Below, piece by piece: positions 7,247 to 59,570 of a DNA stretch of 64,000 bases. The translations under genes were made by a program, and so were the position numbers. The notes beneath the pieces are model-generated. The model was given only the letters and a program-made list of their open reading frames with translations, was not told the DNA's origin and did no database searches. The first letter of the stretch is position 1, and every line of letters starts with the position of its first letter. Origin of the DNA: an archaeon (GTDB taxonomy: Archaea; Nanobdellota; Nanobdellia; Pacearchaeales; JAPDKA01); assembly GCA_029258825.1 (NCBI GenBank), contig JAPDKA010000003.1:2065-66064 (forward strand). Reading direction: 5' to 3'.

Positions 7247-7258
7247 TAAATTTATTAT

Positions 7259-9895: not shown

Positions 9896-10014
9896 AAAAT
9901 AGCAACATAATTTGAGTATTAAAAGGTTTTGCCAAGTTTTGCTCAAAAACCGTGTTGTATTTATAAAGTGGTTATTATCGAAAAGTTTAAAAAAGCGTAT
10001 CTTAACATTTTGTT

Positions 10015-13135: not shown

Positions 13136-13217
13136 ATTTAAAAGTAAAAGATTGTAAGTATAATCATAATTATAGTAACTGTGATTATATGTATAAAACA
13201 TTCAACAAACTTGGCTC

Positions 13218-40730: not shown

Positions 40731-41072
40731 TTAATATTTGAACTTCCTTTCATAATTCTTATGATCAAGCCATTCCAAAATTATTAGAAGAATAATTACA
40801 TTACTGCCTTTTATAGTATAAATTAATCTCCAAGCATTGGGAAGGTTGTATTTCCATAGATTATCAAGTTTTCCAAATCTTTTGTGATATTCTTTGGGAA
40901 TTAATCTCTTCGGAATTTGAATACCACAAAAAGGATTTTCTTCTAAATCTCCAAAAGCTCTTTCTAACCACTCTCTTAATTTTTTGTCTTCAGTTTTTGA
41001 GTTTTTTAATTTTTCAAAGGCTTTTTTAACCCGCTCATCGGCAAATACAACTTTTGACTTCATTTCTTCCAA
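40731..41072 (-). CDS. RelE/ParE-family toxin-like protein
   Basis: LWKYNLPNAWRLIYTIKGSNVIILLIILEWLDHKNY fits the RelE/ParE core (hydrophobic-R-hydrophobic-hydrophobic-Y ... ighR/HK..Y). 113 aa. Confidence 0.5.
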   Translation of the reverse strand: MEEMKSKVVFADERVKKAFEKLKNSKTEDKKLREWLERAFGDLEENPFCGIQIPKRLIPKEYHKRFGKLDNLWKYNLPNAWRLIYTIKGSNVIILLIILEWLDHKNYERKFKY

Positions 41073-41329
41073 AATAGATGTTTTTTCTTTAGATATCTAG
41101 CTACAGCTTCTTCATCAAAAATCCATGCAACTTTTCCTTCCTTATCAATAGCTATCTTGCCTGACTTGAGCAAATAATCGAATATTACACAAAAAGTCTG
41201 GTACATAACTTTCCTTGGAAGTTTTTCCCAAATTTTATTTTTTGTAAATTCTCCAGAGTGCTTTCTAATAAATTCTTCTACCATAAGTACAGTATCCAAT
41301 CTTGGGTAATGTAGGATTTGTGTAGGCAT
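41060..41329 (-). CDS. putative cognate antitoxin (small protein overlapping the RelE-like gene by 13 nt)
   Basis: 89-aa ORF immediately upstream of and overlapping the toxin-like gene. No recognisable DNA-binding motif, so the assignment rests on context. Confidence 0.35.
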   Translation of the reverse strand: MPTQILHYPRLDTVLMVEEFIRKHSGEFTKNKIWEKLPRKVMYQTFCVIFDYLLKSGKIAIDKEGKVAWIFDEEAVARYLKKKHLFWKK

Positions 41330-44136: not shown

Positions 44137-44934
44137 ATGGGAAACACATACAAAAAGAGCCTGGAGAAAATTGTGGAAGAATTAAGAATAGTAGACCAAT
44201 ATATAAAAAAAGAAAAGCCAAATCTTATAGTAGTACCTTTAAGAGGAGCTGCACCATTTATAGACATACTCAATATAATTGATGACGAGTTCCCAAATGA
44301 AATAGTTGAGTACATCATAGCATCAAGTTGCGTAAAAAAAGTGAGGGAGATCATAAAAAAATCTTTATTTAGTCTAATAGTTGATAAATTATTTGATGGT
44401 GGAAAAATAGTTTTTATTGATGAAGTTGTAAGTGGTAATTCCTTGGTAAGGATATATAAGCAATTTCATGCAGCATTGAATGAATATGCTGAAAGAAAAA
44501 TAATTAGCATTTATGGAAAAGACGTTGATATGACTAGGGAAAATATTCAAAACTATAAAGAATCGCTTATTAAAAAATTTGAAGAAAGACATATAGGATT
44601 AGTAGAAAAAAAGAAGGTAAATAAAAACAAAGAATACCTAGAACTTGTTAATGAAGGGATTGTAATCCCTTTTTATGTTCAGCGTATTCCTACAAGGGAT
44701 CAACCAAAATACAGAATAATACATTATAGAGAAAAACCTTTGGAAGAAGATAGAATAAGATATCTTCCTGAAATTGAAAAGGTGGAAGCATCTCAAGAAT
44801 ATTTAGAATTACTAAAGGATGTCGCCATGATTATCGGTAAGGACCCTGAATCTGTAAAGATAAATAATATTGAGAAAATCTTGAACGCAAACGAATGGCC
44901 TAAACTCTATGATGAATTGAAAGAGAGCGTGTAA
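44137..44934 (+). CDS. hypothetical protein with phosphoribosyltransferase-like (PRTase type I) motifs
   Basis: LIVVPLRGAAPF and IVFIDEVVSGNSL resemble the PRPP-binding loop (hydrophobic4-D-D/E-x2-S/T-G). Confidence 0.35.
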   Translation: MGNTYKKSLEKIVEELRIVDQYIKKEKPNLIVVPLRGAAPFIDILNIIDDEFPNEIVEYIIASSCVKKVREIIKKSLFSLIVDKLFDGGKIVFIDEVVSGNSLVRIYKQFHAALNEYAERKIISIYGKDVDMTRENIQNYKESLIKKFEERHIGLVEKKKVNKNKEYLELVNEGIVIPFYVQRIPTRDQPKYRIIHYREKPLEEDRIRYLPEIEKVEASQEYLELLKDVAMIIGKDPESVKINNIEKILNANEWPKLYDELKESV

Positions 44935-44935
44935 A

Positions 44936-45505
44936 TTAACCACTCAATAAATTTTTACTTGATTGTAAGGTTGCTAATTGATTTAACAGGATAGAATAAG
45001 GAGTATCGGCGTCTGCTAAACCGACAAATTGTATTTCAGGCCTTGGTAATGTGCTTCCTGCTGTTTGAATATTAAGAGAAGCTAAACCAACCATTCTCTC
45101 TCCCAAACCTTGAGAGACAGCCACATCAGTTATCTTATATAAAGGAATACTCTTAATCTTTCGTGAAATAACACCTCCTTTAAAGATAACTCTTTGAGTA
45201 GTTATATAATATTCGTAAGTTTTTATTAAGGCTATATTGTATAGAAATATGATTAGTAGCAATATAACAAAACTAACTGGAACAATAATAGTCAAATTTT
45301 GGTGAACCACGAAGAACGCTATACCTATAAATAAAGTAATAAATAAAGCTGGAATTATGGAATCGAAAAACCATAAAACGAGAAGTTTGCCACTTGGACG
45401 ACCCTGATATAAAATCTTTTCATTCTTTTGTAGGGTAAATCGCATAATATCAAAAATTAGCTTAAGCTTTATAAAATTAACGTGATTCTGTAGCAATAAA
45501 TACAC
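44936..45505 (-). CDS. membrane protein with bacterial-type PH domain (YdbS/DUF304-like)
   Basis: Two TM helices followed by ...TTQRVIFKGG...IPLYKITDV.... The likely start is MRFTLQ (M21). Confidence 0.5.
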   Translation of the reverse strand: MYLLLQNHVNFIKLKLIFDIMRFTLQKNEKILYQGRPSGKLLVLWFFDSIIPALFITLFIGIAFFVVHQNLTIIVPVSFVILLLIIFLYNIALIKTYEYYITTQRVIFKGGVISRKIKSIPLYKITDVAVSQGLGERMVGLASLNIQTAGSTLPRPEIQFVGLADADTPYSILLNQLATLQSSKNLLSG

Positions 45506-45577
45506 ATTTTTATTATTTTTGTCTTTGCTTCAACTAGTGAAGAAAATTTTTATAAATTCATTCTGTTTTGAAAATAA

Positions 45578-45937
45578 ATGAAAAACAAATTAGCTTTAAG
45601 TTTGATCATTCTTGTTGTTCTTATTATAGCAATCATTAGCATATTTTACCATTACCAAAACAAACAACAAGCAAACGAGCAGGAAACAAATCTGGAATGG
45701 AAGCAGCTTCCTGATGGAAGGTGGAAGCTGATAGACAAAGCATGCGCTGAAAAAGACATTCCGCAGTACTTGTGCGTAACAAACTGCTTTGACCATTCCC
45801 ATACAGAAATATGGCAACTATGCAAGGATAAAGGCAAAATAATGACAACAAACACAGGCATAGAAGTGCTCTGCTTTTCCTCTGGCTGTCTCCCAAACAT
45901 AGTCAATGGTGAATGCCAAATAATGTGCGTGTCATAA
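45578..45937 (+). CDS. small secreted Cys-rich protein
   Basis: N-terminal TM/signal segment and 10 Cys in the C-terminal 70 aa. Confidence 0.45.
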   Translation: MKNKLALSLIILVVLIIAIISIFYHYQNKQQANEQETNLEWKQLPDGRWKLIDKACAEKDIPQYLCVTNCFDHSHTEIWQLCKDKGKIMTTNTGIEVLCFSSGCLPNIVNGECQIMCVS

Positions 45938-45982
45938 CAGAACAAGTATAGATTTTTAAAACAGAATTGAAATAAATTTTCA

Positions 45983-46393
45983 ATGAAATTATATCATGGA
46001 TCTCCAAAAAAGTTGAAAGTATTAATACCGAAAAAAGCTAAAGGGATAGAAAAATTCGAAAACCAAAAAGCAATTTTCTTGACAAAATCGTTCCTACAGG
46101 CTGCCCTTTATGCTATAGGCAAAACGCTAAAGGGAAAAACAACCTTTGCATTACCTCCCAGAAAGCTTATCATAGTAGGAAAACATAAACCAAAATCTGG
46201 CTATGTGTATGAAGTTAACGTTAAAGCAAAAAGATTGCCGTTAGGTCAATACACCTATGATAAACCAATCAAGGAATTCAAAGTTTACAAAGTAAATCCA
46301 AAAGATTTTGAAAAACACATAATTTACGTTAAAACCAAACAAGAACTGATGAAGCTCGTTGATAAAGAGAAAAAACGAGGGAGTGCGTACTAG
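45983..46393 (+). CDS. hypothetical protein (N-terminal YHGS motif)
   Basis: 136 aa beginning MKLYHGSP, with no confident family. Confidence 0.4.
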   Translation: MKLYHGSPKKLKVLIPKKAKGIEKFENQKAIFLTKSFLQAALYAIGKTLKGKTTFALPPRKLIIVGKHKPKSGYVYEVNVKAKRLPLGQYTYDKPIKEFKVYKVNPKDFEKHIIYVKTKQELMKLVDKEKKRGSAY

Positions 46394-46630
46394 GACAGTC
46401 TCTTTGTGGGGCTTGTTCATAGCTAGGCAAGAGAGGACATTATCACATCATATATTTTAGATAGGAGCCACAAAAAGATGAGGGTTATTGCAATAGTTAT
46501 TACAACTGCAGCAAGCTTTTTAGGGCTCATAAGATAATTAAGAATCTGTCATTTTTATACATTTATCTTGTGTCTTTATTTTGAAGTAATAGCCGAAATA
46601 CTTAAAAAGAATTAAATTTTATCAATTAAC

Positions 46631-46912
46631 ATGAACCGGGATCGAATGATGAGGGGACTGAAAAGAAGAAGAAGGAGAAATTTAGAATATCAACTGGGAG
46701 AACTGGAGAAAGAAGAGATAAGGGTGGTTGATGGTATGTATGAAGGTGTTTATTTTCCCATCATATCTGATCTTTTTGGAATAAATCTTTATGTAACATG
46801 TGGTAATTGTAGAAGAGGGTTTAGACGAAGAGTTGATAGACTTCCAAAATATCTCGTATGCCCTTATTGTGGATCTATTAACCGTTTCAGACGAATACGA
46901 AAAGTTTTCTAA
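46631..46912 (+). CDS. Arg-rich zinc-ribbon protein
   Basis: CGNC...CPYCGS C4 ribbon and an RRRRR N-terminal cluster. Confidence 0.45.
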   Translation: MNRDRMMRGLKRRRRRNLEYQLGELEKEEIRVVDGMYEGVYFPIISDLFGINLYVTCGNCRRGFRRRVDRLPKYLVCPYCGSINRFRRIRKVF

Positions 46913-47043
46913 TTGGTTTTTGAGTGCTTTTTTTAGATTTTATCTAATGCTATGTTGATTTCTTTATTAATGCGTATTCCTTTATTTCAACCACCATTAT
47001 GAGGTTATTTTTCTTTCTCCATAGAAAGAAATTAGGTCAAAAA

Positions 47044-50013
47044 TTATTTTTTATGAATTACTTCAAAAATCGATTTAATAGTATCGAACCAATATTTTTT
47101 ATAACCCTCCGAAGGCTTATTTTTATCTTTTGTAAACAAGAAAAGAAATACTCTTATTTTGAAATTGTTATGAGTAAAAGCCTTAGGTTTTTCTTTTTCT
47201 TCAAAGAATTTTCTAAACCAGTCAACTTTATGTTGATATTCTGATCTACCTATGCCTTTTGGATCTACAAACACAATAAAGTAGTTGTCTCCCTTAGCAA
47301 ACCAAAATATAAAATCTGGTTTAAACTTTCGAATTTTATTCGATTCAGGATCATAATAAGGTATAAAAACCTCGTCAAAATATTCATCTATTTTACTGAA
47401 TAACCACCAATCTACAGATATACTTTTTATATTTTTCTTAAGGAATTGCTCTAATTTCTCAATAAATTCTACTTCACTTTTTGTTTTTATCACATGTTTA
47501 ATGTAATCAATCTTTTCTTTTTCTGAAAGGATTAAGGGAACATAATAATGGTTTATTATATGTTTTATTCTCAAATCTTTAAATCTTTCTTCCTTTGAAA
47601 GTCTGGCAAGTTTTTCTATTTCGGTAGCGAATTCGTCTATTTTTATCTCACCTTTTTCAAGCATAATTTTTAACTCCTCTTTTCTCTTCTCAGAAAACCT
47701 AAATTGAGAAACATTTCTTATTTTTTCTTTTAGCTCATTCATTTCTTCTTTCGTTTTTAGAAATACTTTAATTTTCTTAAAATGCACTATTTCCTCCTCG
47801 AGTTTCTTAAATCTATCAAATTCTTCGATATCCAAATTAAAGTGACTTATTAATTTTTGTGCTATTACAAATAAGGGTAAAGTCGGATTGTCAACGATTC
47901 TATAATATGTGTTTGCATTTTGAAAACTTTTTTTTATATGTTGCAACAATTCTACAGACAAATTGTTTTGCATAAGTAGAACTCTATCGTCTATTTCATT
48001 AAAGTATTTTTGAAGTAATTCATAATCTTGTTGAGATATAATGAACTTCTGTGGTTCTTTTATTTGATACAATTTTTTACCAGAGAATTTATAAACAGGA
48101 ATTAAAAGTATTTTCTCTTTAGCTTCTTCAACCACTTCCAATTCAAGAGTTTCTTCTATCTCTTTCTCTATTTTTAATGTTTTTATAACTTCTTCCAGGG
48201 CACTTCTGTTTGTACCGAAAATGAATAACGTCTCTAAAGGCTGAACTAAAAAATCTCCACCAATTTCCATGAACATTTCGTCATCTTCTCCTCTATTGTA
48301 AAGATTTTTTAACCTCTTTCTTCTATCTTTAATAGGTTCTATTCTTACTCCTCTTCCAACAGATTGAATGACGAATTTCTTTGCTTCTGTACCAGTACCT
48401 ATATTTATGAAGAGAATTATATTTGGTCTGTTTGAATCCCATCCCTCATAGAAAGCTCTAGATCCCATTAAAATGCTTATATCTTCTCTTCTATCTAGCT
48501 CCTCAAATACACTCTTATCTTCAAATTGTTCGGTCGGAGTATATTTGTAATCTTTCAAGTTGTCTTTAACCCATTTTAGTGCGTTTCCTATTCTAATTAA
48601 TGCAAATGCTTTATGACTACTTTTCAATTTAAGTACTATTTCTTTATTCGTGCCTGGAATAAGGGTATATTCTACTTGACCAAATGAAGAAGAATTATAA
48701 ACAAATTTTAATATGTCTTGGAGAGTTATCTTTTTTAGAATATCTCTTTGAATGATTAGTGGAATACTCTCATACAATAGCAAAGGTTTTTCAGAAAGTT
48801 CTTGTAAGATTTCCTCTTTAGCCTCCTCAAAAATCTTGGTGTTGACATCACCTTTTCCAATTTTTTCTATTTCTTCAAAAAATAATTTTAGATCTGGTTT
48901 CTCTTGCTTTGCTTCTATAAGATTGACTGTGTTAACTAGAGTTAACATCAATGGCTCGTGATAAACATTTTTTACAACTTTTCTTATCTTTTTTGCAATT
49001 TTCTTAACATAAGTCAAAAGAATCAAAGATTTCAAAACAATTTTTTGCTTTTCAGCTCTATTATAATCTTCCTTTTCCCTAAAAGCCCTTATCTCTTGTT
49101 TTAAAATATAAATGTGCTTTCCGTAACCTTGGGAAATAAACTTTTCTAAGTTAAAGTTATAAGCAGTAGTTATTCTATCGTGCTCATCAGTAAATGTTGC
49201 TGAAAAATTAAATAAAAATCCGTTTCTACTCATTATGGAGTAAATAAATTTAGCTTTTGATTCTTGCATTTTACCTTTGTGTGCTTCATCCAAAATTATG
49301 TACCAGTTACCATTATTTTCATAATTTCTAAAATCTATTCTTACGATTCCTTTCTCGTCCACAACATTTGTTGATTTGTAGAAAAATACACAAATTTGAT
49401 TGAAATATGAAATTAAACTCTCTTTTTTTATTTTATCATACTCTGTCAACTCTGCAAGATTTACTTTAAATCCCCTTTCCATTGCCAATTCATTAAATTC
49501 TTCTATATGCTTCTTTAATTGATTTATTAAATCATCTCTATGAGTCAAAATTAGAATATCTTTCTTCGGAATTTCTCCAGCATCCATCAATTTTTTTAGA
49601 ACTTCTATTAATTTTACTATCAACAAAGTTTTCCCGCTTCCGGTAGCCATCCAAAAGGCGGCTCTGTTTATAAAATTCTTGAATTTTATATTTCCATCTT
49701 CTATTGGATAATATTCCTGAAGAATATTGGCTATTTTTCTCTTAACCTTTGCTAATTTTATATCTAAATTTCTTTCTAAATCTTCATCTAAACCATTAAG
49801 CACATATCTTTGATAAAATTTTGATTTATCTGCTTGATCTTCTTTGAAGAAAAGATAAAGTACTTTAATAGCATTTTTCAGTCCTTCTTGTTGAAAATCC
49901 CAAAGTTTTTTCTTTTTTGAAAAACTTACTGTATCTAATAAACTCCAAGGGGTAGGTAAATCATCAAAATTTATTTCTTCAACTATTGATTGGAGGATGG
50001 GTCTAAGGATCAT
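47044..50013 (-). CDS. res: Type III restriction enzyme Res-like protein: SF2 DEAH helicase with C-terminal PD-(D/E)xK nuclease
   Basis: Q-motif LWDFQQEGL, Walker A WMATGSGKT, DEAH box ILDEAHKG, motif III SAT, motif VI QSVGRGVRI. C-terminal FKPDFIFWF...IVFVDPKG is a PD...D-x-K nuclease motif. 989 aa. Confidence 0.75.
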   Translation of the reverse strand: MILRPILQSIVEEINFDDLPTPWSLLDTVSFSKKKKLWDFQQEGLKNAIKVLYLFFKEDQADKSKFYQRYVLNGLDEDLERNLDIKLAKVKRKIANILQEYYPIEDGNIKFKNFINRAAFWMATGSGKTLLIVKLIEVLKKLMDAGEIPKKDILILTHRDDLINQLKKHIEEFNELAMERGFKVNLAELTEYDKIKKESLISYFNQICVFFYKSTNVVDEKGIVRIDFRNYENNGNWYIILDEAHKGKMQESKAKFIYSIMSRNGFLFNFSATFTDEHDRITTAYNFNLEKFISQGYGKHIYILKQEIRAFREKEDYNRAEKQKIVLKSLILLTYVKKIAKKIRKVVKNVYHEPLMLTLVNTVNLIEAKQEKPDLKLFFEEIEKIGKGDVNTKIFEEAKEEILQELSEKPLLLYESIPLIIQRDILKKITLQDILKFVYNSSSFGQVEYTLIPGTNKEIVLKLKSSHKAFALIRIGNALKWVKDNLKDYKYTPTEQFEDKSVFEELDRREDISILMGSRAFYEGWDSNRPNIILFINIGTGTEAKKFVIQSVGRGVRIEPIKDRRKRLKNLYNRGEDDEMFMEIGGDFLVQPLETLFIFGTNRSALEEVIKTLKIEKEIEETLELEVVEEAKEKILLIPVYKFSGKKLYQIKEPQKFIISQQDYELLQKYFNEIDDRVLLMQNNLSVELLQHIKKSFQNANTYYRIVDNPTLPLFVIAQKLISHFNLDIEEFDRFKKLEEEIVHFKKIKVFLKTKEEMNELKEKIRNVSQFRFSEKRKEELKIMLEKGEIKIDEFATEIEKLARLSKEERFKDLRIKHIINHYYVPLILSEKEKIDYIKHVIKTKSEVEFIEKLEQFLKKNIKSISVDWWLFSKIDEYFDEVFIPYYDPESNKIRKFKPDFIFWFAKGDNYFIVFVDPKGIGRSEYQHKVDWFRKFFEEKEKPKAFTHNNFKIRVFLFLFTKDKNKPSEGYKKYWFDTIKSIFEVIHKK

Positions 50014-50720
50014 AGTTTTTCACCAAAGTGTTTCTTATGAAGCTCTTTAATTAAATCTAAAATGTCTTGAAAATTAGTCTCCTCTATTTCTTTTTTAGTA
50101 GCGATATGATAAAGTGAATGTGCCATTTCATTAGCTCTCTCTTTAAATCTATCGGCTAATTGACATATTCTTTCTACAATTTTTCTTTCACTTTCAAAAT
50201 CCTTGCTATAGATACTAAGATTTTTCAATAAAACATTGAAATCGTGATTTCTTTTTCTATTAAAGTCAAAATACTTTTCTTTATGTTCTTTCTTCTTTTC
50301 CGGATATTTTTTCCGTAGAATTTCTACTATCAAGTTTTCTAACACTTTTCTCATTAATACAAAACAGGCAGTATAACATTTATGGGTGTATGTTTTATTG
50401 ATCTCATTGATATGAGCTTTTAGAAATTTGTTGTTAGTTTCAAATTTTGCAATTTCTATGATTTTTCTTTTTTTATATTGTTTAGGTATTTTAATAGTAA
50501 CCTTTTCTATTTTTATATTTTCCATCGACTTTCTATCTTCTTCTGATAAATATTTTGCAACAGAAATTCCTTTTTTTTTAGCAAATATATGTGCTGCGGC
50601 ATTTATTGTAAGTTGGGGGTAGTCCCTTCGTATTTCTGATAGTTTAGTTCTGATACTTCTTTCTTTACATCCGGTTCTTTTTTTTAAAATTTCTAAAATT
50701 TTAGGATTAAGTCTTTTCAT
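50010..50720 (-). CDS. HEPN-domain protein, DUF4145-like (restriction-system-associated)
   Basis: YTACFVLMRKVLENLIVEIL...FKERANEMAHSLYH has the DUF4145-type conserved helix and Rx5H (RANEMAH). The stop overlaps the res ATG (ATGA). Confidence 0.5.
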   Translation of the reverse strand: MKRLNPKILEILKKRTGCKERSIRTKLSEIRRDYPQLTINAAAHIFAKKKGISVAKYLSEEDRKSMENIKIEKVTIKIPKQYKKRKIIEIAKFETNNKFLKAHINEINKTYTHKCYTACFVLMRKVLENLIVEILRKKYPEKKKEHKEKYFDFNRKRNHDFNVLLKNLSIYSKDFESERKIVERICQLADRFKERANEMAHSLYHIATKKEIEETNFQDILDLIKELHKKHFGEKL

Positions 50721-50994
50721 TTTTATCGCTTGATTTCTTACGTTTTGAATAAAGGTAAGATGAAACGCTTCCTCGGTCTTTATATCCTAGAATATCGGCT
50801 ATTTCTGTTGGTGTGAAATTGAGAGAATGTAGTATTTTAACTGAAGTTTCAACTGTAAATTCTTTTTTACCTAAAATTTTGTGCAACTCTATAAAAAATC
50901 TAATAATCGCATTTAATCTTTTTATAACTTTTATGTTCTCGTTTTCTTCGCTCAAACGTTTTTTACTTTTTCTTTGTTTTTTCATCTTTAACAC
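50707..50994 (-). CDS. mini HTH protein, paralog 4 of a tandem array (sigma70-r4/LuxR/HTH_10-like)
   Basis: A hydrophobic helix LNAIIRFFIEL followed by NFTPTEIADILGYKDRGSVSSYL. Overlaps its neighbours at both ends. Confidence 0.5.
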   Translation of the reverse strand: MLKMKKQRKSKKRLSEENENIKVIKRLNAIIRFFIELHKILGKKEFTVETSVKILHSLNFTPTEIADILGYKDRGSVSSYLYSKRKKSSDKNEKT

Positions 50995-51160
50995 CTTTTA
51001 TTTTACTTAAAGGAAGAATGTGACGTACAGTACTATCGTCAATATTTAAAATTTTTCCAATATCTTTTGAGGTAAGACCAACTTGTGCCAGTTGCAGAAT
51101 TAACAAAATAGTCAATTTTTTGTCGATCTCTTCTAACTTTTTTAATATTTTTTCATTCAT
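50963..51160 (-). CDS. mini HTH protein, paralog 3
   Basis: LTILLILQLAQVGLTSKDIGKILNIDDSTVRHIL. Confidence 0.5.
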   Translation of the reverse strand: MNEKILKKLEEIDKKLTILLILQLAQVGLTSKDIGKILNIDDSTVRHILPLSKIKGVKDEKTKKK

Positions 51161-51386
51161 TTTTCTTACCTCTTTTTAATAAGGATTTTTCTTTAGCCAC
51201 ATATTTTTCGGAGATGTCGAGTATTTTAGCAATGTCTTTATTACTTAGACCAAATTTAGATAATAGTTTTACCCCCTCTTTGATTGTGAGTTGTTTACCT
51301 TTAAGATTTAAAAATATAAGTACACTTAATTTTGCGCTTATTTCTTTGAATATTTTTTCTATCTCCCCTACCATTTTATTCACCAT
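51153..51386 (-). CDS. mini HTH protein, paralog 2 (closest to the LuxR/GerE-type consensus)
   Basis: LSVLIFLNL...LTIKEGVKLLSKFGLSNKDIAKILDISEKYVAKEKS resembles GLxNKEIAxxLxISxxTV. Confidence 0.55.
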   Translation of the reverse strand: MVNKMVGEIEKIFKEISAKLSVLIFLNLKGKQLTIKEGVKLLSKFGLSNKDIAKILDISEKYVAKEKSLLKRGKKNE

Positions 51387-51630
51387 TTAAAGCTTTCTTT
51401 AATTTTTCTCTTCGTTTTTTAATTGTTGAAATCTCAACTGCTATATAGGATGGTTTTTTGTTTAGTAATTGTGCAATTTCCTTATAGTTTAATCCTGCAT
51501 TATACAAGGTTGCAATTTTTTCTCTAAGTGTAATTTCTTTTTCTGTATAACCTTCTCTCAAATCTATAAGTAACGCTATAATCATGTTAAGCTTCTTTAG
51601 TAATTGTTCACGAAATTCTTTTTCTTCCAT
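51376..51630 (-). CDS. mini HTH protein, paralog 1
   Basis: MIIALLIDL...ITLREKIATLYNAGLNYKEIAQLLNKKPSYIAVEIS. Confidence 0.55.
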   Translation of the reverse strand: MEEKEFREQLLKKLNMIIALLIDLREGYTEKEITLREKIATLYNAGLNYKEIAQLLNKKPSYIAVEISTIKKRREKLKKALNGE

Positions 51631-51736
51631 AGTAATATTTTAACTAAATTAAACTTTAAAAACTTTTTGGTTATTGTTTTTTTTCCTTGAAAAATGCATT
51701 TTTCAAAAATGTGAAATTTAGTTTTATTTAGTTAAG

Positions 51737-54229
51737 TTACCACCATATTAACGGTTTAATTATCTTGTAATCCAAATCCTTAATGTTAATCTTTTCTTCA
51801 TCTTCAAACTCAACATAATCTTTTCCAACTTTCTTTATCCATTTTCCAAGCAAATTTGAAAGAGTTTCGGCTATGTCAATATTTTGATAAAGTTTTTCTA
51901 AATTAACTTTTACTTTCTTGTTTTTATAATCAATTTCCAAACCTTCCAATAATTTCAAATCTTTCATAAAAATGTATTGATTGTAAGGGTCTTGTGTTGG
52001 ATCAAAGAAGGGATCGGTATCAGCATATTTCACTCTTCTTAAGGTGTCCTCGTATTGTTCTAATTCATAATACTTAAAAAATCCACCACCTTTCCATCCT
52101 ACTTCTTTGGAGATTCCATAAGGTTCGTGATTCCCTTTTCCTGCTAAGACTTCTTTCATTCTTACTAAAATCCCACCTAAAATTTTTCTTCTTTCATCTA
52201 AGAAAGGATAGAAATGATCTCCCATTTCTATACCTATCCATTTTCTGTTCAATTTATGAGCTACTGCTGTAGTAGTACCAATACCTAAAAAGAAATCTAA
52301 TACTATATCTCTCTCTTTAGTACTTACCTCTATAATTCGTTTAAGAAGTCTCTCATGATTTTCTGTAGAAAAACCCCATGCAGGAACGACAGAATAACCA
52401 GGTATGTCCATCCAATTTGTGCCAATTGTCTTTTTATCCAGCAATATCTTAATTTTGTTATTTTCGATCTTCACCTTTCCTAGCTTGTATAATTTTTCAA
52501 TATTCTCTTGCGATTGTACCCATCTTCTAAATCTAGGTGGATAAAATTTTTTACCTTCTAATATAATAGGATCATTTTCCGCTTTAGAAGACGGACGAGT
52601 GCCTAAATCGACCCATTTTGGTTTTATGTCACCCCAGATAGAATTAAATCTAAATTTATCAGTTTTCGAATATACTAAAAGATTTTCGGTTTCTTCAACA
52701 AGATTTTTATCACCTGTCTTAGGAAGTCCTTGATTTCTTTTGATATCTATTTCATTCCTGAAATTTTCCTTACCAAAAATATCATCCATCAAAAATCTAA
52801 CATAATGATTTCCATGATAATCGATTCTCACATAAATACTTCCTGTATCTTTCAAAATTTCCTTAGCCAATCTTAACCTATTTTCCATCATTGTAATCCA
52901 AGCAGAATCTAAGAATCTGTTAATGTACATTGTAAATTCATTGCTTCCTGTGTTGAACGGTGGATCTATATAGATTAACTGTACCTTTTCTCTAAATCTT
53001 GGTAAAATTGTATTCAAAGCTTGCCAGTTTTCACTTTTAATTAACCAACCATCTAGTTCTTCATCCAAATTATCAAACAAACTCAAAATTTCAAGCTCTA
53101 AATCTTTGAAATACTTTGTATCGATTGGTAAATACTGATATTTTGGATTTAGAGATTTTCCTTTAAGAGTTGTTATAAAAATTTCTTTAGGATTAAACCC
53201 ATCATCAACGATTCCCAATTCTTTCCATTCTTTAATCTGCTCTTTAAAATTAGGATGTTTTAAAATTTTTTCAATAATTTCTATTCCTTTTTCTTTCTTA
53301 GCAATTCTATCTAATGTAATCACATAATTGCTATTCAAAACAAACTTTGGTTTCTGCCAAATTTTAACTAATTCATCTTCAAATTGAGAAATAAAATCAA
53401 TTATTTTGTAAGCAACTTCTTTCAAGACTTTTAGTTGTTTTATCCTTTCTGGCGTAAACTGAGTTTTATCTGAATAGACATATTGATAAAGCCACAAATC
53501 AAATTGCTCCTTCAAGAATTTATTAGCATTTTTATTTATAAAATAATCTATTTCGTTTTGCTTTTCAAAAACTCTAAAAGCTCTTTCTAAAGTTTCTTCA
53601 TCTAATACAATACCCTTCTCTTTTAATGCTTTCAAAATATCTTTTACTTTCTTCTTCCTTCTTCTTTCAGAATAATAAACATAAAAAACTATTTTCCTGT
53701 TTTCTATTCCCTTAAGTTCGTAAATTAATTCTCTTTTTTCCCAAGCCTTTTTATGCTGTAATTTTGATACGTCAAAGAAAAACTTAAAGCCGTTAATAGA
53801 CACTTCCATATTTTTTGGTTGAATGTCGGTTTTGACATAATAAAGCATGTGAGTCTTCCAAAACATCACAACATCTTTATTTTCAGTATAAACTCTTTCA
53901 AAAATCCTCTCACTGAAAGGAGTATGTCTAAAGTAAATAGATCCGCTCTCACTAAAGTATCTTTTAAAGAAACTATAAAGTTTATCAAACAATTCTTTTT
54001 TGAATGCTGGGAATTCTTTTGTTTTCTCTTCAATTTCTTCCTTCAGAATTTTGAAAATCTTATCAAAGTATTTTGATTTAATCCTCATTAGATTTATGTA
54101 CCCAGATTCTCCTTCTATCTCTTCACCTATAAAAACATCTTTTAAGGCTTCAAAGAATCTTGTTTCCCCATTTATAAACTGAATGTGCTCTTCACCCAAC
54201 CTTTTAGGCATACAAATTAAACCCAGCAA
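51737..54229 (-). CDS. mod: beta-class N6-adenine/N4-cytosine DNA methyltransferase (Type III Mod-like) with about 400-aa N-terminal extension
   Basis: Motif IV LIYIDPPFNTG precedes motif I LDFFLGIGTTTAVAHKLNRKWIGIE, the beta-class order seen in Type III Mod and M.PvuII-type enzymes. 830 aa. Confidence 0.75.
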   Translation of the reverse strand: MLGLICMPKRLGEEHIQFINGETRFFEALKDVFIGEEIEGESGYINLMRIKSKYFDKIFKILKEEIEEKTKEFPAFKKELFDKLYSFFKRYFSESGSIYFRHTPFSERIFERVYTENKDVVMFWKTHMLYYVKTDIQPKNMEVSINGFKFFFDVSKLQHKKAWEKRELIYELKGIENRKIVFYVYYSERRRKKKVKDILKALKEKGIVLDEETLERAFRVFEKQNEIDYFINKNANKFLKEQFDLWLYQYVYSDKTQFTPERIKQLKVLKEVAYKIIDFISQFEDELVKIWQKPKFVLNSNYVITLDRIAKKEKGIEIIEKILKHPNFKEQIKEWKELGIVDDGFNPKEIFITTLKGKSLNPKYQYLPIDTKYFKDLELEILSLFDNLDEELDGWLIKSENWQALNTILPRFREKVQLIYIDPPFNTGSNEFTMYINRFLDSAWITMMENRLRLAKEILKDTGSIYVRIDYHGNHYVRFLMDDIFGKENFRNEIDIKRNQGLPKTGDKNLVEETENLLVYSKTDKFRFNSIWGDIKPKWVDLGTRPSSKAENDPIILEGKKFYPPRFRRWVQSQENIEKLYKLGKVKIENNKIKILLDKKTIGTNWMDIPGYSVVPAWGFSTENHERLLKRIIEVSTKERDIVLDFFLGIGTTTAVAHKLNRKWIGIEMGDHFYPFLDERRKILGGILVRMKEVLAGKGNHEPYGISKEVGWKGGGFFKYYELEQYEDTLRRVKYADTDPFFDPTQDPYNQYIFMKDLKLLEGLEIDYKNKKVKVNLEKLYQNIDIAETLSNLLGKWIKKVGKDYVEFEDEEKINIKDLDYKIIKPLIWW

Positions 54230-54335
54230 ACTTTTTTAACCTTTTCTATCCCCGCACAGTCAAAAATCCTGCCGACTCAAAACCAACCTTACCAACCATA
54301 TTATAGAGCTTAATGAATTTAATGAATTTTACGTT

Positions 54336-55580
54336 TTACTTTAGTATGTATTTCCACAATGGAACGTATTCAATTTTATTTTCCTTTTTTTCAATATCCT
54401 CAGTTATTATTAAAATTTTCTTTGGTTTAAATTTTTTCTCAAAATAGGAGATATTTCTTATTTCGTTTTTTCCTATTTTCTTTCTGTACTTAACCTCTAT
54501 ACCAACAACATCTTTTCCGTTAACCACGAAGTCTACTTCCTTATTACCTTCTCTCCAATAGTATTTTGCTTGACTCTCAAACAAAACCAAATTTTCTGCA
54601 ATCTTTCCTTTTTCCTCAAAACCGTAAACAAGAGAAAAACAAGGGTGCGAAGGATAATACCTCTTCAATTTTCTTGACGAAGCCCTCCTAGAACCCTTAA
54701 AGTTCCTCAGACTCTTTATTAAAAATCCGTTCTCCAAATAAAAAAGATAATTACTTAAGGCCTGTCTAGTAATGGCCAACTCGTTTGCCACCTCATTTAA
54801 ATTAATCATTATTCCTGGCATATTAGCAATTATTTCGACAATCTTTCCAACTATTTCTGGTTCCCTAACATTAAAAAGCTGTGTAATATCCTTTAATACA
54901 ATCATATCTATTATACCCTCTTTCAAATATCTTTTTGCCAAAGTTTCATTTGCATTAATAATCTCTGGAAAAGGTCTAAGCAAATAGTTATTTAACTCTA
55001 TTTCTACCTCTCTTTTCCACAACCTGACATTTTCTCTGATTTTCTTAATATCTTTACCTTTTAACTCTAAAAATTCTTCAAACAATAAAGGAGTCAAATA
55101 AAAATAAAAGATTCTTCCAGCCAGGCTTTCCTTAGCTTTTAACATAACATTAAGAGAAGCAGATCCAGAAACGAAAAACTTCATATTAGGAAAAGCATCA
55201 TAATAAATCTTTAATTTATTCTGCCAATCTTTCAATTTTTGTATTTCATCGAGAAAAACAAAAATTTTCTCTTTTTGAAGGCTCTTAAGCAAGATTTCCT
55301 TTTCATAAAAGTCAAAAAGTTCTTCTAAACTTATAGAGGATTCATCAAAAGAAAAATAAAGAATATTTAAAGGATTAATTCCTCTCTTAATAAGATAATC
55401 AATTACTTGATACATCAAAGTTGTCTTTCCTGTTCTCCTAAGCCCTACTACGGCTATTATTTGTCTTACTTTCAAATATTTCAAAATTTCGCTAAAAAGA
55501 TTTCTCTTAAATTCTGGAACAAGTTCTTTCCTTACTTCCCCCTCCTTCCACCAAGGATTAAGCATCTCTATTACTTTCAT
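54336..55580 (-). CDS. AAA+ ATPase, COG1373 family (AAA_14 + DUF4143)
   Basis: Walker A GLRRTGKTT and Walker B FVFLDEIQ. Fourth paralog in the window. Confidence 0.7.
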   Translation of the reverse strand: MKVIEMLNPWWKEGEVRKELVPEFKRNLFSEILKYLKVRQIIAVVGLRRTGKTTLMYQVIDYLIKRGINPLNILYFSFDESSISLEELFDFYEKEILLKSLQKEKIFVFLDEIQKLKDWQNKLKIYYDAFPNMKFFVSGSASLNVMLKAKESLAGRIFYFYLTPLLFEEFLELKGKDIKKIRENVRLWKREVEIELNNYLLRPFPEIINANETLAKRYLKEGIIDMIVLKDITQLFNVREPEIVGKIVEIIANMPGIMINLNEVANELAITRQALSNYLFYLENGFLIKSLRNFKGSRRASSRKLKRYYPSHPCFSLVYGFEEKGKIAENLVLFESQAKYYWREGNKEVDFVVNGKDVVGIEVKYRKKIGKNEIRNISYFEKKFKPKKILIITEDIEKKENKIEYVPLWKYILK

Positions 55581-55584
55581 ATTA

Positions 55585-55642
55585 GTTAATTATAATTAAC
55601 TAATATTTAAATTTTTCGTTAACTATAATTAACTAATATTTA
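55585..55642. repeat. Two 25-bp direct repeats in the promoter of the ATPase gene (candidate tandem promoter/operator)
   Basis: gttaattataattaactaatattta (55585-55609) and gttaactataattaactaatattta (55618-55642) differ at 1 of 25 positions. Each carries a tttaaatatt TATA-like box when read on the minus strand; the proximal copy is about 25 bp from the ATG at 55580. Confidence 0.5.
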
Positions 55643-55867
55643 CAAACCTATAGATGTTTTTCTCTCTGAAACCTGCATCAAAGCTAAACTCAAGCAACTT
55701 TTTGAATAATATTTCATATCATAAGAAAAATCTGATGCTGCTCTTAATTTAAGTTGGATTCTCATAGTATAGTTTAGTAACACAATATTTTAAAATTTTA
55801 GTATTACAAAAACTTTAACTGCTAATCCTGCCTGAAACCCACGCCCAAAAAACAAATCTAAAAAACC

Positions 55868-57544
55868 TTAATCTTGCTTAGCGTCTATCACAACCACGTT
55901 AATGCTGTCTCTCAACAGCTTGCTTATTAAATCACCTGTATGAGCTGCTCCGTACACTACACCAAAAACAGAAGTGCTGTGGGAGTTAAGGAATTCTTTT
56001 ATTTTCTCTACCAAAACAGAATCCCTCTTATCAATGGCAAAATGATAATATTCAAGAGGAGACTCAAATAAGTTCAGTTTCAGTTCAAGACCAAGATATT
56101 TCATTAGATCTACAAGGCTCGCATTGGGATTGCTTTTGAAGAACTCTTCTGAACTTTTAATCAACCAATCTGCACTTTCCTCTATTTTTTCTTTAGAACT
56201 TTCTATCTCCTTAAGACGCTCTTCAATATCACGGGAAACAGTTACTGGATTCAATATTTTAAGTATTTTATACAGTCCGCAAACGTAGTTATCAACATCA
56301 CAAGGATACAATTTGCCCTTTTCTCTCTTGTCAGGCGGAGGGCAGTAGAAAGGATCTTCCATTTCTTTAAACAATCTCCAATCTTCAATATCTGAAATAA
56401 ACATCCTCAAAAACATGTATTCGAAATTATCAGAAAAGTTATCAGACCATACGGTATCGAACTTATAAAGGTGGGCAAGCATTTCAGCTATAACAAGTGG
56501 CATAAGAGATAACTTACCAAAGAAGCGGACAAGTTGATAATAAGCATTTATTATTTTAGACCGAATACTTGCTCCTTTACAAGATTCGCCCAGATAATCG
56601 GATAAATGATAAGTAAGAATGGATTCTGCTCGTGCAGAATCTCCTGCTAATGCTAAAGAGTCTGCAGTACAAAGAATCATGAGATCTTTAGACTTCAGAA
56701 CTTCAAAGAAAAAATCTTTTCTATTTTTCCATTCAATATACTCTCTAAGAGAATTGAATGCCTCATCATTTACTTTTCCCTCCTCCGCTGGGAGCAATTT
56801 AATCTGTGGGTTCTTAACTGCTGCAAGCACATCACCACCAAAATAAAGATAAAAGATATCCTCAATAATCGATGCGTTTTCTTTGATTTTTTCCTTCATA
56901 AAGTTAATATATTTCCAATACTTGGGTGGAACAACTTCTCTATTTTTTTCTAATACTGTAAGCATACGATCAGCTTCCTCAACCAAGCTATCTAGCTTAG
57001 CGATATTCTTTTTTGCAACTTGTTTACGTTCGGCGATTCCCTCTTCTGTTTCGAATCCTTCCACAAAAATGTAGGAAAGGCCAAGATTTGCATGCAGTTT
57101 TGATATGATCGAATCGAGGTTTTTTTGACACTTAATAGCAGCCTTCGTGCTTAGATATTCTGTTGAATCGGTAGAGGGCCACCTTATTACTTCATACGAA
57201 TAAAGAGGACTTTTATGTATTTGCGGAAGGTAAATGCATGTTGCTATAGCATGGTCTGCTTTATACAGTTCAACATTAGGAAATTCGCTTTTTCTTATTC
57301 TAAGGGTATCATTACGAGCAGGCACAACCAAATATTCATCTTCAGGTTTATGCTCAACAACTTGCTCTTGCTTTTTTGTCTGAACAGGTGTCACATTATT
57401 AGATGTAGAATTGACTAAGCTGAGTGAAACACAGTTTGGCAACCAAAATGCTAGTGCCACTAATAGGTTTCTAATTAGATTTCTCATTATGAAGTAGTCG
57501 CTTTTTGTTTTATAAAGTTTTCTGTTTTGTGCATGATTCAGCAC
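55868..57544 (-). CDS. hypothetical secreted protein
   Basis: Signal peptide MRNLIRNLLVALAFWLPNCVSL after the probable start M20. 558 aa with no recognisable domain. Confidence 0.5.
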   Translation of the reverse strand: MLNHAQNRKLYKTKSDYFIMRNLIRNLLVALAFWLPNCVSLSLVNSTSNNVTPVQTKKQEQVVEHKPEDEYLVVPARNDTLRIRKSEFPNVELYKADHAIATCIYLPQIHKSPLYSYEVIRWPSTDSTEYLSTKAAIKCQKNLDSIISKLHANLGLSYIFVEGFETEEGIAERKQVAKKNIAKLDSLVEEADRMLTVLEKNREVVPPKYWKYINFMKEKIKENASIIEDIFYLYFGGDVLAAVKNPQIKLLPAEEGKVNDEAFNSLREYIEWKNRKDFFFEVLKSKDLMILCTADSLALAGDSARAESILTYHLSDYLGESCKGASIRSKIINAYYQLVRFFGKLSLMPLVIAEMLAHLYKFDTVWSDNFSDNFEYMFLRMFISDIEDWRLFKEMEDPFYCPPPDKREKGKLYPCDVDNYVCGLYKILKILNPVTVSRDIEERLKEIESSKEKIEESADWLIKSSEEFFKSNPNASLVDLMKYLGLELKLNLFESPLEYYHFAIDKRDSVLVEKIKEFLNSHSTSVFGVVYGAAHTGDLISKLLRDSINVVVIDAKQD

Positions 57545-57572
57545 GAATTTTTATATATTTTCTAATTTTTCT

Positions 57573-58154
57573 TTGAACATGCCAACCACGTTGCTTGATT
57601 TAATAGCATCAGACATTGTTTGGGTTGCTGTGATCGCAATAGTTGTTTTGCTTGGGAAGCACAAGAAAAACACACATAAGTACAGCAAGATAAATGCTGT
57701 ACTCAATTTTAAAATAAAACTAGACAATAGCATAAAAACAATACTCATTCCTGCGTTGTTGAGCATTGCCTTATTCAGTGTGTTTGCACTAACAAGCAAG
57801 CAAAAGATTATTGCTTATGATGTTCCGTTAGCTTATTTATTGATTTCTGCTGTTGTTATTGCACCAATAGCTGAAGAATTGCTATGTAGGGGTATTTTAC
57901 TTGGATGTTTTTTGTATTGTTCAAGATGGATAAAAAACAAATATGCAAGAATCAGCTTTATAGCTGTTGGTTTTCTGCTACAACTTTCTATCTTTGTAAT
58001 TTTTCATTTAAGAACCAAACCTTTCGAAATTGTCATGCTTGCAGCAAATGGTTTTTTATTCAGCATACTTTTTCTTGCATATAGAACAAACTTACTACCG
58101 AGTATAATTGCTCACGCTGTGAGCAATTTAGCAGTAATATTGACGAATTTCTAA
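57573..58154 (+). CDS. CPBP-family intramembrane metalloprotease (CAAX protease / Abi-like)
   Basis: Motifs EELLCRG (EExxxR), FxxxH (IFHLR), and HAVSN (HxxxN). Multiple TM helices. Confidence 0.7.
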   Translation: MNMPTTLLDLIASDIVWVAVIAIVVLLGKHKKNTHKYSKINAVLNFKIKLDNSIKTILIPALLSIALFSVFALTSKQKIIAYDVPLAYLLISAVVIAPIAEELLCRGILLGCFLYCSRWIKNKYARISFIAVGFLLQLSIFVIFHLRTKPFEIVMLAANGFLFSILFLAYRTNLLPSIIAHAVSNLAVILTNF

Positions 58155-58210
58155 TTAAAATTAGTTAAAATTTTTTCAAGAAAATTTGATATATTTAGTA
58201 GAGATTTGTA

Positions 58211-58699
58211 TTAAATTAATCCAAAATAAATAACTCCTGGAATTTTTTCTTTAAAATAGAATTGTAAATATCGGATTTTACGTAATTTTACAACAATTTT
58301 CTCGAAGTGGATTTGCCAATGTTTATGATTATGCTCTGCCGGAAAAGCTATAAACAAAACAGCTTTGTTTTTATAGTTTGTCGATTTTAATTTTTCAATA
58401 TCATTTATTATTCCTTGTATATTCTTTGTTATAGGACGTGTTTTATTTTTTACATTTTCATATCGAATATTAGTATTAACTGTTTTAAGTTCAATTGCCC
58501 AATTTTCAAAAGTGATGTCAATTCTATCTCGTTCGGGGGTTACATCTTTAAAAAATTTGGATAATATATCACATAATTCCACTTTTAACCAACCCTCAAA
58601 TTTGGCCCTTTCTCTCGCAAAAATAGACAAACTTTGACTATTTTCCAACTTTAGTCTAAGTTGATTAATTATTAATTCGGCGACCCTTTCGAATTTCAT
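58211..58699 (-). CDS. hypothetical protein with PD-(D/E)xK nuclease-like motif
   Basis: ...FEGWLKVELCD...DRIDITFENWAIELKTV has the D...E-x-K spacing of restriction-endonuclease-like folds. Low confidence. Confidence 0.35.
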   Translation of the reverse strand: MKFERVAELIINQLRLKLENSQSLSIFARERAKFEGWLKVELCDILSKFFKDVTPERDRIDITFENWAIELKTVNTNIRYENVKNKTRPITKNIQGIINDIEKLKSTNYKNKAVLFIAFPAEHNHKHWQIHFEKIVVKLRKIRYLQFYFKEKIPGVIYFGLI

Positions 58700-58820
58700 T
58701 GTAAATTAAATATATTTAATTTTTTGTTTAATGCTATCAATCTTTTATAGGTGAAACTAGGATCAAAAAGTTTGTTGTACGGATAGCTGTACACAAGCTC
58801 TGTTTTTGGAATTCTAATAA

Positions 58821-59183
58821 TCATTTTTTCCTGACCTTTACAACCAAATGTTGGCCTCTCAAAGCTTCAGCTTTAGATAGTTCCCAGTCCAGCTTCATTA
58901 AACTTTTAACAAAAGGATGAGACAAATTCAATTTATAGTATATAGATTTACCGATCTTTCTCGTTTTTATCACAATACCATATCGTAAAAATTTAGGAAA
59001 AAATTTCTTTAGAGTGTTATAACTAACTCTGCTCTTTCTTGCTATTTCTGTGATAGGAAAATCAAAAAAATGATTCTCCATTAAAAAATCTATTACCCTC
59101 ATTTGAGGCGTGCTACCCATGTATTGCAGAAATATAGATTTTCTCTCCCTCATTCTCCGACCATCCATCCGACCACCCACCAT
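58821..59183 (-). CDS. winged-helix transcriptional regulator
   Basis: PITEIARKSRVSYNTLKKFFPKFLRYGIVIKTRKIGKSIYYKL is HTH plus wing. The real start is probably the internal Met MGSTPQ. Confidence 0.5.
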   Translation of the reverse strand: MVGGRMDGRRMRERKSIFLQYMGSTPQMRVIDFLMENHFFDFPITEIARKSRVSYNTLKKFFPKFLRYGIVIKTRKIGKSIYYKLNLSHPFVKSLMKLDWELSKAEALRGQHLVVKVRKK

Positions 59184-59309
59184 TTATTTTTTGCAAAGCA
59201 ATATTTATTTATCATATCAAATAATACCTACGTATTAATACATGTATCAAACAACAAAAATATTTATAAATCTTTCTATCATTGAAACTTTAATTTCAAA
59301 AATTGAAAA

Positions 59310-59570
59310 ATGCAATCAGACATAGAAACCATAAAAGCACAGATTATGTGGAAACTTGTAAGGAAAGGAAATTGGGGCCACTGCTATGACAGATTAGAAC
59401 ACTTCAAAAGATTTCCCATGCTAGATAAAGCAATAAAAGAATTAGTAAAACAAGAATGGATAATCATACATAAAAAATCAAGATTCAAAGCAATTTCTCT
59501 CAACCCCAAATACAAATATGAGATTATCAAATTCATTGAAGATAAGATGAAATATATCAAAGAAAGTTAA
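59310..59570 (+). CDS. hypothetical small protein
   Basis: 86-aa ORF with no motif. Confidence 0.35.
   Translation: MQSDIETIKAQIMWKLVRKGNWGHCYDRLEHFKRFPMLDKAIKELVKQEWIIIHKKSRFKAISLNPKYKYEIIKFIEDKMKYIKES

Follow-up and report, generated by a model that had tools for sequence, protein, structure and literature searches.

Between the alanyl-tRNA synthetase gene alaS and the ribosomal protein gene rpl3 of the archaeal contig JAPDKA010000003.1 lies a stretch of 15.4 kb (positions 44137-59570 of the 64,000 nucleotides analyzed, hereafter the window) that an initial annotation had described as a single AT-rich defense island. We find that this stretch is a mosaic with one clear foreign core of 9.2 kb and not one island. 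The center of this variable region, from about 46.5 to 55.75 kb, is probably a horizontally acquired defense islet, made up mainly of a Type III restriction-modification (RM) system in which the modification (Mod) and restriction (Res) genes are separated by an embedded cassette of small genes. Acquisition of the core is well supported by its composition, its synonymous codon usage, and a DNA identity of 78-83% to unrelated genomes. The initial annotation was right that an acquired defense-type locus is present here; it overestimated the size and uniformity of that locus, and its criterion, AT content, was a weak one. The Res, Mod, COG1373 ATPase, CPBP, helix-turn-helix (HTH) and winged HTH (wHTH), secreted, and zinc-ribbon genes that it listed are present, as judged by Pfam, PADLOC, and sequence motifs (Table 1).

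Table 1. Features of the interval between alaS and rpl3. NGC codons are AGC, GGC, TGC, and CGC, tested per gene against the host fraction of 0.254; rho(GpC) is the relative abundance of GpC; aa, amino acids.
Feature	Position	Strand	NGC codons	Evidence and remarks
alaS, archaeal-type alanyl-tRNA synthetase	41449-44034	-		
265-aa protein	44137-44934	+	4/35 (p = 0.04), marginally atypical	No family
bPH_2 membrane protein	44936-45505	-	2/29 (p = 0.01), marginally atypical	bPH_2, E = 2e-16
119-aa secreted Cys-rich protein (g3)	45578-45937	+	11/20, host-like	rho(GpC) 1.74
136-aa protein	within 45578-46393	+	2/15, not significant	rho(GpC) 1.23; too short to call
Compositionally foreign core, ~9.2 kb	46531-55750, boundaries approximate			Markov log-likelihood, tetranucleotide, and dinucleotide composition
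93-aa Arg-rich protein with CxxC...CxxC zinc ribbon, converging on Res	46631-46912	+	1/33 (p = 8e-4), foreign-type	Foreign composition; rho(GpC) 0.11
Res, predicted Type III restriction subunit (superfamily 2 helicase plus C-terminal PD-(D/E)xK motif)	47044-50013	-	4/121 (p = 5e-11), foreign-type	Pfam ResIII, E = 6e-16
236-aa protein, N-terminal wHTH-like region plus C-terminal helical bundle, DUF4145/HEPN-like	50010-50720	-	1/32 (significant), foreign-type	AlphaFold (AF2) model, pLDDT 87
Four tandem overlapping paralogous small HTH genes	50707-50994, 50963-51160, 51153-51386, 51376-51630	-		HTH_38 above cut-off
Mod, Type III modification methyltransferase	51737-54229, likely start 54211	-	6/113 (p = 2e-8), foreign-type	Pfam N6_N4_Mtase PF01555, E = 3e-40
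COG1373-type ATPase, candidate defense gene	54336-55580	-	3/60 (p = 4e-5), foreign-type	AAA_14, E = 3e-33; DUF4143, E = 2e-17
539/558-aa secreted protein	within 55868-58154	-	17/90, not significant, host-like	
CPBP/Rce1-like membrane protease	57573-58154	+	7/26, not significant, host-like	PF02517, E = 5e-14; rho(GpC) 2.15
162-aa protein	58211-58699	-	0/20 (p = 3e-3), foreign-type	Deviant composition; no family match
120-aa wHTH protein	within 58211-59570	-	3/27	No family match; 61%-identical homologue in one relative (L011)
86-aa protein	within 58211-59570	+	2/11	No family match
rpl3, start of the rpl3-rpl4-rpl23-rpl2 operon	59687-60685	+		Operon runs from 59687 onwards

Host signature and the foreign core

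The window has a G+C (GC) content of 33.0%. Its alanyl-tRNA synthetase (AlaRS) is 50% identical to the best non-self protein found in a protein search (42-43% only in a metagenome scan), and its ribosomal protein L3 is at most 55% identical to those of Woese-/Pacearchaeota and other DPANN metagenome-assembled genomes (MAGs) in a scan of genome contigs that yielded 31 relatives. Judging by these sequences, the source is a deeply branching DPANN archaeon of the Woese-/Pacearchaeota type that has no sequenced close relatives. Outside 44-60 kb, the DNA carries an unusual signature: GpC is extremely overrepresented (relative abundance 1.81), and the values for GA/TC and CC/GG are 0.82 and 0.88. The GpC excess resides in the codons AGC, GGC, TGC, and CGC and in tetranucleotides containing GCA or GCT, and the codon preference provides a simple, amino-acid-independent marker for telling native from foreign genes in this genome.

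We compared nine core genes (46631-55580) and the nine flank genes of the interval with a set of 51 host genes. A second-order Markov log-likelihood scan placed change-points at 46528 and at about 55750, with a weak tail extending to 56957. In 2-kb windows, tetranucleotide correlation with the host fell to 0.10-0.43 at ~46-55.5 kb and was 0.80 ± 0.10 elsewhere. The dinucleotide distance delta* reached 0.225 for 46950-55700 (0.20-0.236 across estimates of the core), compared with 0.03-0.086 for every other 8.75-kb stretch, and the relative abundances in this segment were 0.91 for GpC, 1.21 for GA/TC, and 1.25 for CC/GG. The core genes have a median GC of 0.278, and the amino acids K, I, F, E, and N make up a fraction of 0.46 of their products (p ~1e-3 against the host genes).

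Codon choice separates the core independently of amino-acid composition. AGC accounts for 31% of Ser codons in the host and 10% in the core, GGC for 30% and 4% of Gly codons, TGC for 47% and 9% of Cys codons, and CGC plus CGT for 25% and 4% of Arg codons; the two sets choose differently among the synonymous codons of Ser, Gly, Arg, Thr, and Cys, with p values of 1e-6 to 2e-11. GC at third codon positions (GC3) and the pooled distance in relative synonymous codon usage (RSCU) did not separate the island by themselves, and only these specific codon families did so. When each gene was tested individually (Table 1), the zinc-ribbon, Res, 236-aa, Mod, and ATPase genes of the core were of foreign type, together with the 162-aa gene of the right flank.

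The Type III restriction-modification genes

The mod and res genes are co-oriented, with mod upstream, in the layout of a single operon that begins with mod. Mod is matched over its full length by the PADLOC MTase_III model PDLC03638 (E = 5e-296) and by the Mod subunit of EcoP15I (4zcf_A, E = 7e-17). Its DPPF motif (motif IV) lies ahead of FxGxG (motif I), which is the beta-class order, and a variable target-recognition region lies between them. Res is also matched by the Pfam families SWI2_SNF2 and DEAD, and it contains the motifs GSGKT, DEAH, and QxxGRxxR as well as 'PDF...VDPK'.

The closest relatives of both genes are carried by L044 (Ga0190367_1000002), a JGI contig of 452 kb with 29% GC. 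Res is 82% identical to its L044 counterpart in amino acids and 81.3% in nucleotides over 2,969 nt, and Mod is 78% and 77.8% identical, respectively. The DNA homology ends at the ends of the genes (47062-50018 for Res and 51740-54165 for Mod). L044 also encodes RND-efflux and OEP genes and is therefore probably from a diderm bacterium. Its RM genes lie in an island that comprises a tRNA-Lys, a P4-type tyrosine integrase, a DUF3987 primase, Mod, two small genes, Res, and a HEPN gene. The identity of 78-82% to L044 is far above the ceiling of 50-55% reached by the host's own AlaRS and L3, and this incongruence speaks for a transfer of Res and Mod.

The homologues of Mod are more widely spread. 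The most similar, that of L044 included, are 78%, 76%, 73%, and 70% identical, with one of them on contig L045 (72% by tblastn and 73% for the called protein P0123), and sequences of 59-64% identity occur in Methanocaldococcus, Thermococcus, Desulfurococcales, Aenigmatarchaeota, Peptococcaceae, Patescibacteria, and Thermodesulfobacterium, among others. All of this lies well beyond what the host's housekeeping proteins reach (50-55%). The middle of the gene (~52280-52748) could not be aligned with those of L045 and L049, as would be expected if the target-recognition region had been swapped.

Type III RM systems require two unmethylated, inversely oriented sites for ATP-dependent cleavage, and Mod hemi-methylates its target. 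By analogy with the family, Mod of the window would methylate the recognition sites of the host, and in a Mod-Res complex the helicase/ATPase of Res would communicate between unmethylated sites on incoming DNA, which the C-terminal PD-(D/E)xK nuclease would then cut.

The cassette between mod and res

The space between mod and res is occupied by four small HTH genes followed by the gene for the 236-aa protein. About 100 bp separate mod from the first of these genes, and the reading frames then overlap end to end (51386/51376, 51160/51153, 50994/50963, and 50720/50707), with the last overlap, 50013/50010, joining the 236-aa gene to res. This arrangement suggests that mod, the cassette, and res are expressed as a single transcript. 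The HTH genes encode products of 84, 73/77, 65, and 92/95 aa that resemble one another with E values of 1e-5 to 1e-9; HTH_23 and GerE match them below threshold only. Their homologues sit upstream of homologues of the 236-aa gene on contigs L046, L048, L049, L050, and L056.

The family of the 236-aa protein numbers at least 185 members, which lack Pfam domains, reach identities of up to 74%, and come from Aenigmatarchaeota, Bathyarchaeia, Hadesarchaea, and unbinned contigs. The initial annotation had called it a HEPN protein, and there is a weak similarity in that direction. DUF4145 was found in 25 of 38 family members, in each case below the gathering score (best E = 2e-4), and two histidines, H201 and H205, are invariant across the 38 homologues. 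A Foldseek search of the AlphaFold model against the PDB gave a best E of 0.29 or higher, with a list of weak matches that consisted mostly of HEPN structures (Csm6, SsR10, AF_0298, HepS, and HepT) at TM-scores of up to 0.63; no fold match in the PDB or BFVD was significant. We regard the protein as the candidate effector of the cassette.

The cassette is a module with a mobility of its own. On L049, it lies inside an RM operon, in the order Mod, two HTH genes, 236-aa homologue, and Res. On L046 and L050-L053, which derive from Bathyarchaeia and other sources, HTH genes and a 236-aa homologue lie beside a tyrosine integrase without RM genes, and the IMG/VR contig L048 carries six related HTH genes and a 236-aa homologue, with a large terminase gene 0.9 kb further downstream. 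The closest homologue of the 236-aa protein (74%) is found on L056-L058, where the cassette is followed by no Res gene; about 77 nt of the 5' end of Res remain on L056 (2001-2078), and likewise on L057 and L058, as if an RM locus had decayed or been rearranged there. The slot between mod and res is filled differently in the closest relatives of the RM genes. L044 has at this position (12506-13191) a 40-aa basic protein and a 188-aa protein that matches the Pfam Proteasome family (proteasome-beta-like), and L045 has (9313-10055) a small basic protein of up to 55 aa and a protein of ~190 aa; the two basic proteins are 95% identical to each other. The separability of the cassette is indicated by the end of the DNA homology to L044 at the ends of Res and Mod, by this different content of the slot, and by the occurrence of the cassette beside integrases and in an archaeal virus contig without RM genes.

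On a speculative reading, the cassette would most likely supply one or more regulators and a second-line effector, of RNase type or otherwise, that is linked to the RM genes. Alternatively, the cassette may control the expression of the RM genes.

The ATPase and zinc-ribbon genes

The core also contains two genes outside the RM operon. The COG1373-type ATPase matches the PADLOC family PDC-S01 over its full length (E = 5e-61), although PDC-S01 is only a candidate defense family, and a search of the literature on COG1373 and defense yielded nothing useful. Scans of viral contigs with this ATPase and with the 162-aa and 120-aa proteins of the right flank detected no relatives. The zinc-ribbon protein had no match in the family databases searched. 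Either gene may have been acquired with the RM genes or separately.

Three further AAA_14/DUF4143 genes are found at 1575-2882 (+), 5996-7138 (+), and 7834-8526 (+), all in the first 8.5 kb or so, and the 64 kb of the window thus hold four COG1373 copies. These paralogues share 28-33% identity with the islet ATPase (54336-55580), one of them keeps DUF4143 only, and they coincide with weaker 'island-like' segments at 1545-2608 and 5869-8304. As three divergent copies lie elsewhere in the window, the presence of an ATPase of this kind in the islet is not special.

Directly upstream of the ATPase start codon (55582-55642) is a perfect palindrome of 22 bp, TTAGTTAATTATAATTAACTAA, with a two-mismatch copy 33 bp away. 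Two matches occur in the window, compared with zero expected by chance, and the pair is a possible operator or duplicated promoter.

Alternative explanations

Several observations weigh against a transferred RM islet with an embedded cassette and have to be set beside the evidence for it. Roughly half of the deviation in oligonucleotide usage follows from the core proteins, which are rich in K, I, and E and poor in Ala: back-translated with host codons, the core proteins still gave a delta* of 0.170 ± 0.009 and a tetranucleotide correlation of 0.53 ± 0.045, compared with 0.236 and 0.31 for the real sequence and 0.16 and 0.50 for low-GC genes of the host. The core is not bordered by an integrase or transposase gene, a tRNA, or direct repeats. 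The available relatives, at 50% identity for AlaRS and 55% for L3 at best, are too distant for an empty-site comparison. In the Logan assembly of run SRR22064148, the Res-Mod block (46884-54202) stands as a contig by itself that overlaps its neighbors by only 17 and 30 bp, and its junctions are carried solely by the SPAdes contig. A sequence search of Res against the PADLOC REase_III models and the solved Res chains of the PDB gave no match. Finally, the 236-aa protein is weakly placed as HEPN-like, below threshold, and is not an established member of that group; although the window protein has R at the Arg position of the Rx4-6H motif, that position is mostly T, S, E, K, or N in the 38 homologues, and the motif does not hold for the family.

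The insertion targets that the initial annotation had proposed to look for (att or tRNA-like sites) were sought with several methods. Family profile searches detected no integrase or transposase domain in any open reading frame (ORF) of 44137-59570, boundary repeats did not exceed the 95th percentile of shuffled sequence, ARAGORN reported no tRNA, and the single tRNA that Rfam identified in the window is more than 27 kb from the interval. This tRNA (17029-17133, minus strand, 105 nt, 61.7 bits) probably contains an intron and was missed by ARAGORN in bacterial mode.

That the whole of 44137-59570 was acquired as one defense island is improbable, and we reject it. The interval is indeed the lowest-GC stretch of 15.4 kb in the window, but the gap is modest (30.06% compared with 33.98%), and the AT richness and K/I/F/E/N bias claimed for the block hold for the nine core genes only, as the nine flank genes are indistinct from host genes in GC (p = 0.19), in K/I/F/E/N content (p = 0.76), and in GC3. 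The comparison of GC, codon usage, and tetranucleotides that had been proposed for the block distinguishes the core, whereas its flanks as a group are host-like. Some flank genes do fit a larger island: those for the 265-aa, bPH_2, 162-aa, and 120-aa proteins have a low rho(GpC) and few NGC codons, and all three right-flank genes (162, 120, and 86 aa) deviate in composition. However, the genes with a host signature, encoding the 119-aa, 558-aa, and CPBP proteins, divide the interval into three or more parts, genes that are similarly AT-rich or equally deviant also occur at scattered places outside it, and the boundaries show no repeats, tRNA, or integrase. Horizontal acquisition can thus be maintained for ~46.53-55.75 kb, by composition, codons, and 78-83% DNA identity, but not for the full 15.4 kb.

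Gene order in relatives is also compatible with a larger island, as nothing syntenic lies upstream of rpl3. Among 31 relatives, in up to 10 kb upstream of this gene (less at contig ends), no gene is homologous to the window except one wHTH gene. The interval is therefore not part of a gene order shared across the lineage. As alaS was never found in this position, the description of the block as lying between two conserved core loci does not provide an anchor for comparison.

An assembly chimera, in which the 7.3-kb Res-Mod segment would come from another organism of the sample, is quite unlikely. It would be in keeping with the separate Logan contig, with a low contig coverage (~8x), and with three breaks in 8.3 kb (45907-45936, 46884-46900, and 54173-54202) beside neighboring contigs of 16-20 kb. 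Nevertheless, the SPAdes contig ERZ25515926 NODE_10 (ENA/NCBI MAG contig, 67,950 bp) crosses both junctions and has the same sequence as the window except for 2-4 mismatches, and both breaks lie inside ORFs that continue correctly across them, namely the 3' end of the zinc-ribbon gene and the first codons of mod. Moreover, foreign-type genes share Logan contigs with native ones: the ATPase gene is on one contig with native genes through rpl3, and the zinc-ribbon gene is on another with the native-side 136-aa gene. Exact-protein look-ups matched the source sample alone, in one ENA contig and four Logan contigs, the latter 100% identical to the window, with no alternative 'empty' junction. Possible causes of the separate contig are heterogeneity between strains, low coverage, and a related RM locus at another place in the sample.

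A decayed provirus or integrative element, of which the HTH array and the 236-aa gene would be a viral regulatory remnant with RM genes recruited to it, is very improbable and was likewise rejected. The cassette does occur near a large terminase gene in the IMG/VR contig and beside tyrosine integrases in Bathyarchaeia and other contigs, but by family searches the interval has no gene for an integrase, a capsid protein, a terminase, or replication. In addition, the order Mod, cassette, Res recurs in L049, and L056 retains the remnant of the Res 5' end, so this locus is better explained by a cassette moving among RM operons and mobile elements than by a provirus.

The least probable explanation, that no transfer took place and that K/I/E/F/N-rich, Ala-poor proteins (nucleic-acid enzymes in an AT-rich genome) are sufficient to account for the deviation, is strongly disfavored and rejected, since, although the back-translated core keeps a residual signal and Res and Mod, at a pooled RSCU distance of 0.08, lie inside the host range, the real sequence is 5-7 standard deviations more deviant than the host-codon back-translations, synonymous choice differs at five amino acids, and DNA identity to unrelated contigs greatly exceeds the 55% or less of the housekeeping proteins AlaRS and L3.

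Neighboring genes

On both sides of the acquired RM islet, the remaining genes of the interval are a heterogeneous group. Those encoding the 119-aa, 558-aa, and CPBP proteins look native, and the others are ambiguous small accessory genes. The CPBP gene, which had been counted as an Abi-like member of the island, has the protease domain; because it carries the host codon signature, it is probably native and outside the acquired core. Two further assignments of the initial annotation, a PRTase-like protein at 44137-44934 and a PD-(D/E)xK-like protein at 58211-58699, had been based on short motifs only and gained no backing from Pfam, NCBIfam, PHROGs, PADLOC, or sequence searches of the PDB. For the proteins of no known family as a whole, NCBIfam, PHROGs, and PADLOC gave no usable match (none at all or weak ones below threshold).

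An ORF of 35 aa, a putative gene at most, lies exactly at the left change-point (46423-46530, minus strand). Its predicted product, MSPKKLAAVVITIAITLIFLWLL..., would be one hydrophobic helix, and its codons are GC-rich as in the host. Immediately beyond alaS on its other side, at 40731-41329 (minus strand), we observed a gene for a ParE-like toxin that is preceded by a small partner ORF and has a deviant dinucleotide signature (delta* 0.23-0.30), and accessory genes are thus present on both sides of alaS. Elsewhere in the window, there are isolated genes nearly without NGC codons: an alpha/beta hydrolase gene at 24634-25359 (1/38), a TrmB plus Pol-beta nucleotidyltransferase-like gene at 37187-37735 (0/24), and a gene for a 153-aa protein at 11352-11813 (1/26), all on the minus strand. 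These may be other single-gene acquisitions.

Comparison with known systems

RM genes move between distant lineages and cluster with other defense candidates, and this is textbook behavior. For that reason, the main result is an ordinary one: the islet is real and belongs to a known kind of mobile defense locus, smaller than the 15 kb claimed for it. Its value is as a clean example of recent transfer between lineages, and probably between domains, into a small-genome DPANN archaeon, with 81% DNA identity against a protein background of ~50-55%.

The locus shares with the Type III systems EcoP15I and EcoP1I a beta-class Mod, a Res predicted to be a superfamily 2 DEAH helicase with a C-terminal PD-(D/E)xK motif, and a mod gene upstream of res on the same strand. 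It differs from them in that mod and res do not abut and are separated by five genes (1.7 kb), in that Res is too divergent for a sequence match to EcoP15I Res, and in that the host is a DPANN archaeon. The L044 island has the same order and orientation of Mod and Res and a similar GC content; however, its RM genes are part of a classical integrative island with tRNA, integrase, and primase in a probable bacterium, whereas the interval described here has no integrase or tRNA.

HEPN domains of the DUF4145 family have been described from bacteria, archaea, and dsDNA viruses as members of R-M operons and as fusions with HTH and other domains (Anantharaman et al. 2013, PMC3710099). The 236-aa protein resembles them in its wHTH-like N-terminus, its weakly DUF4145-like helical domain, and its RM-operon and virus contexts; it differs in scoring below threshold in Pfam and in the lack of conservation of the Arg of Rx4-6H across its family. 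The combination of an HTH array with this protein is uncharacterized and would be a reasonable target for defense-system screens.

Two modules are seen in the slot between mod and res, the HTH array with the wHTH/HEPN-like protein (window and L049) and the basic protein with the proteasome-beta-like hydrolase (L044 and L045). A tentative idea, for which the chances are low, is that the gap serves as a cassette-exchange slot for alternative accessory modules that also travel alone, in integrase elements and the genomes of archaeal tailed viruses, and that the module here is an abortive-infection-type effector guarded by the RM system, which could affect the pair formed by a DPANN symbiont and its host. 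The model for such an effector is the PrrC/RloC type, an anticodon nuclease fused to an ABC ATPase and embedded in Type I RM loci. The likeness, an accessory nuclease-type gene inside an RM operon, would point to an effector that is guarded by the RM proteins and serves as a second line. Unlike PrrC and RloC, the putative effector described here belongs to a Type III locus, is small, has no ATPase, and is accompanied by an array of small HTH proteins.

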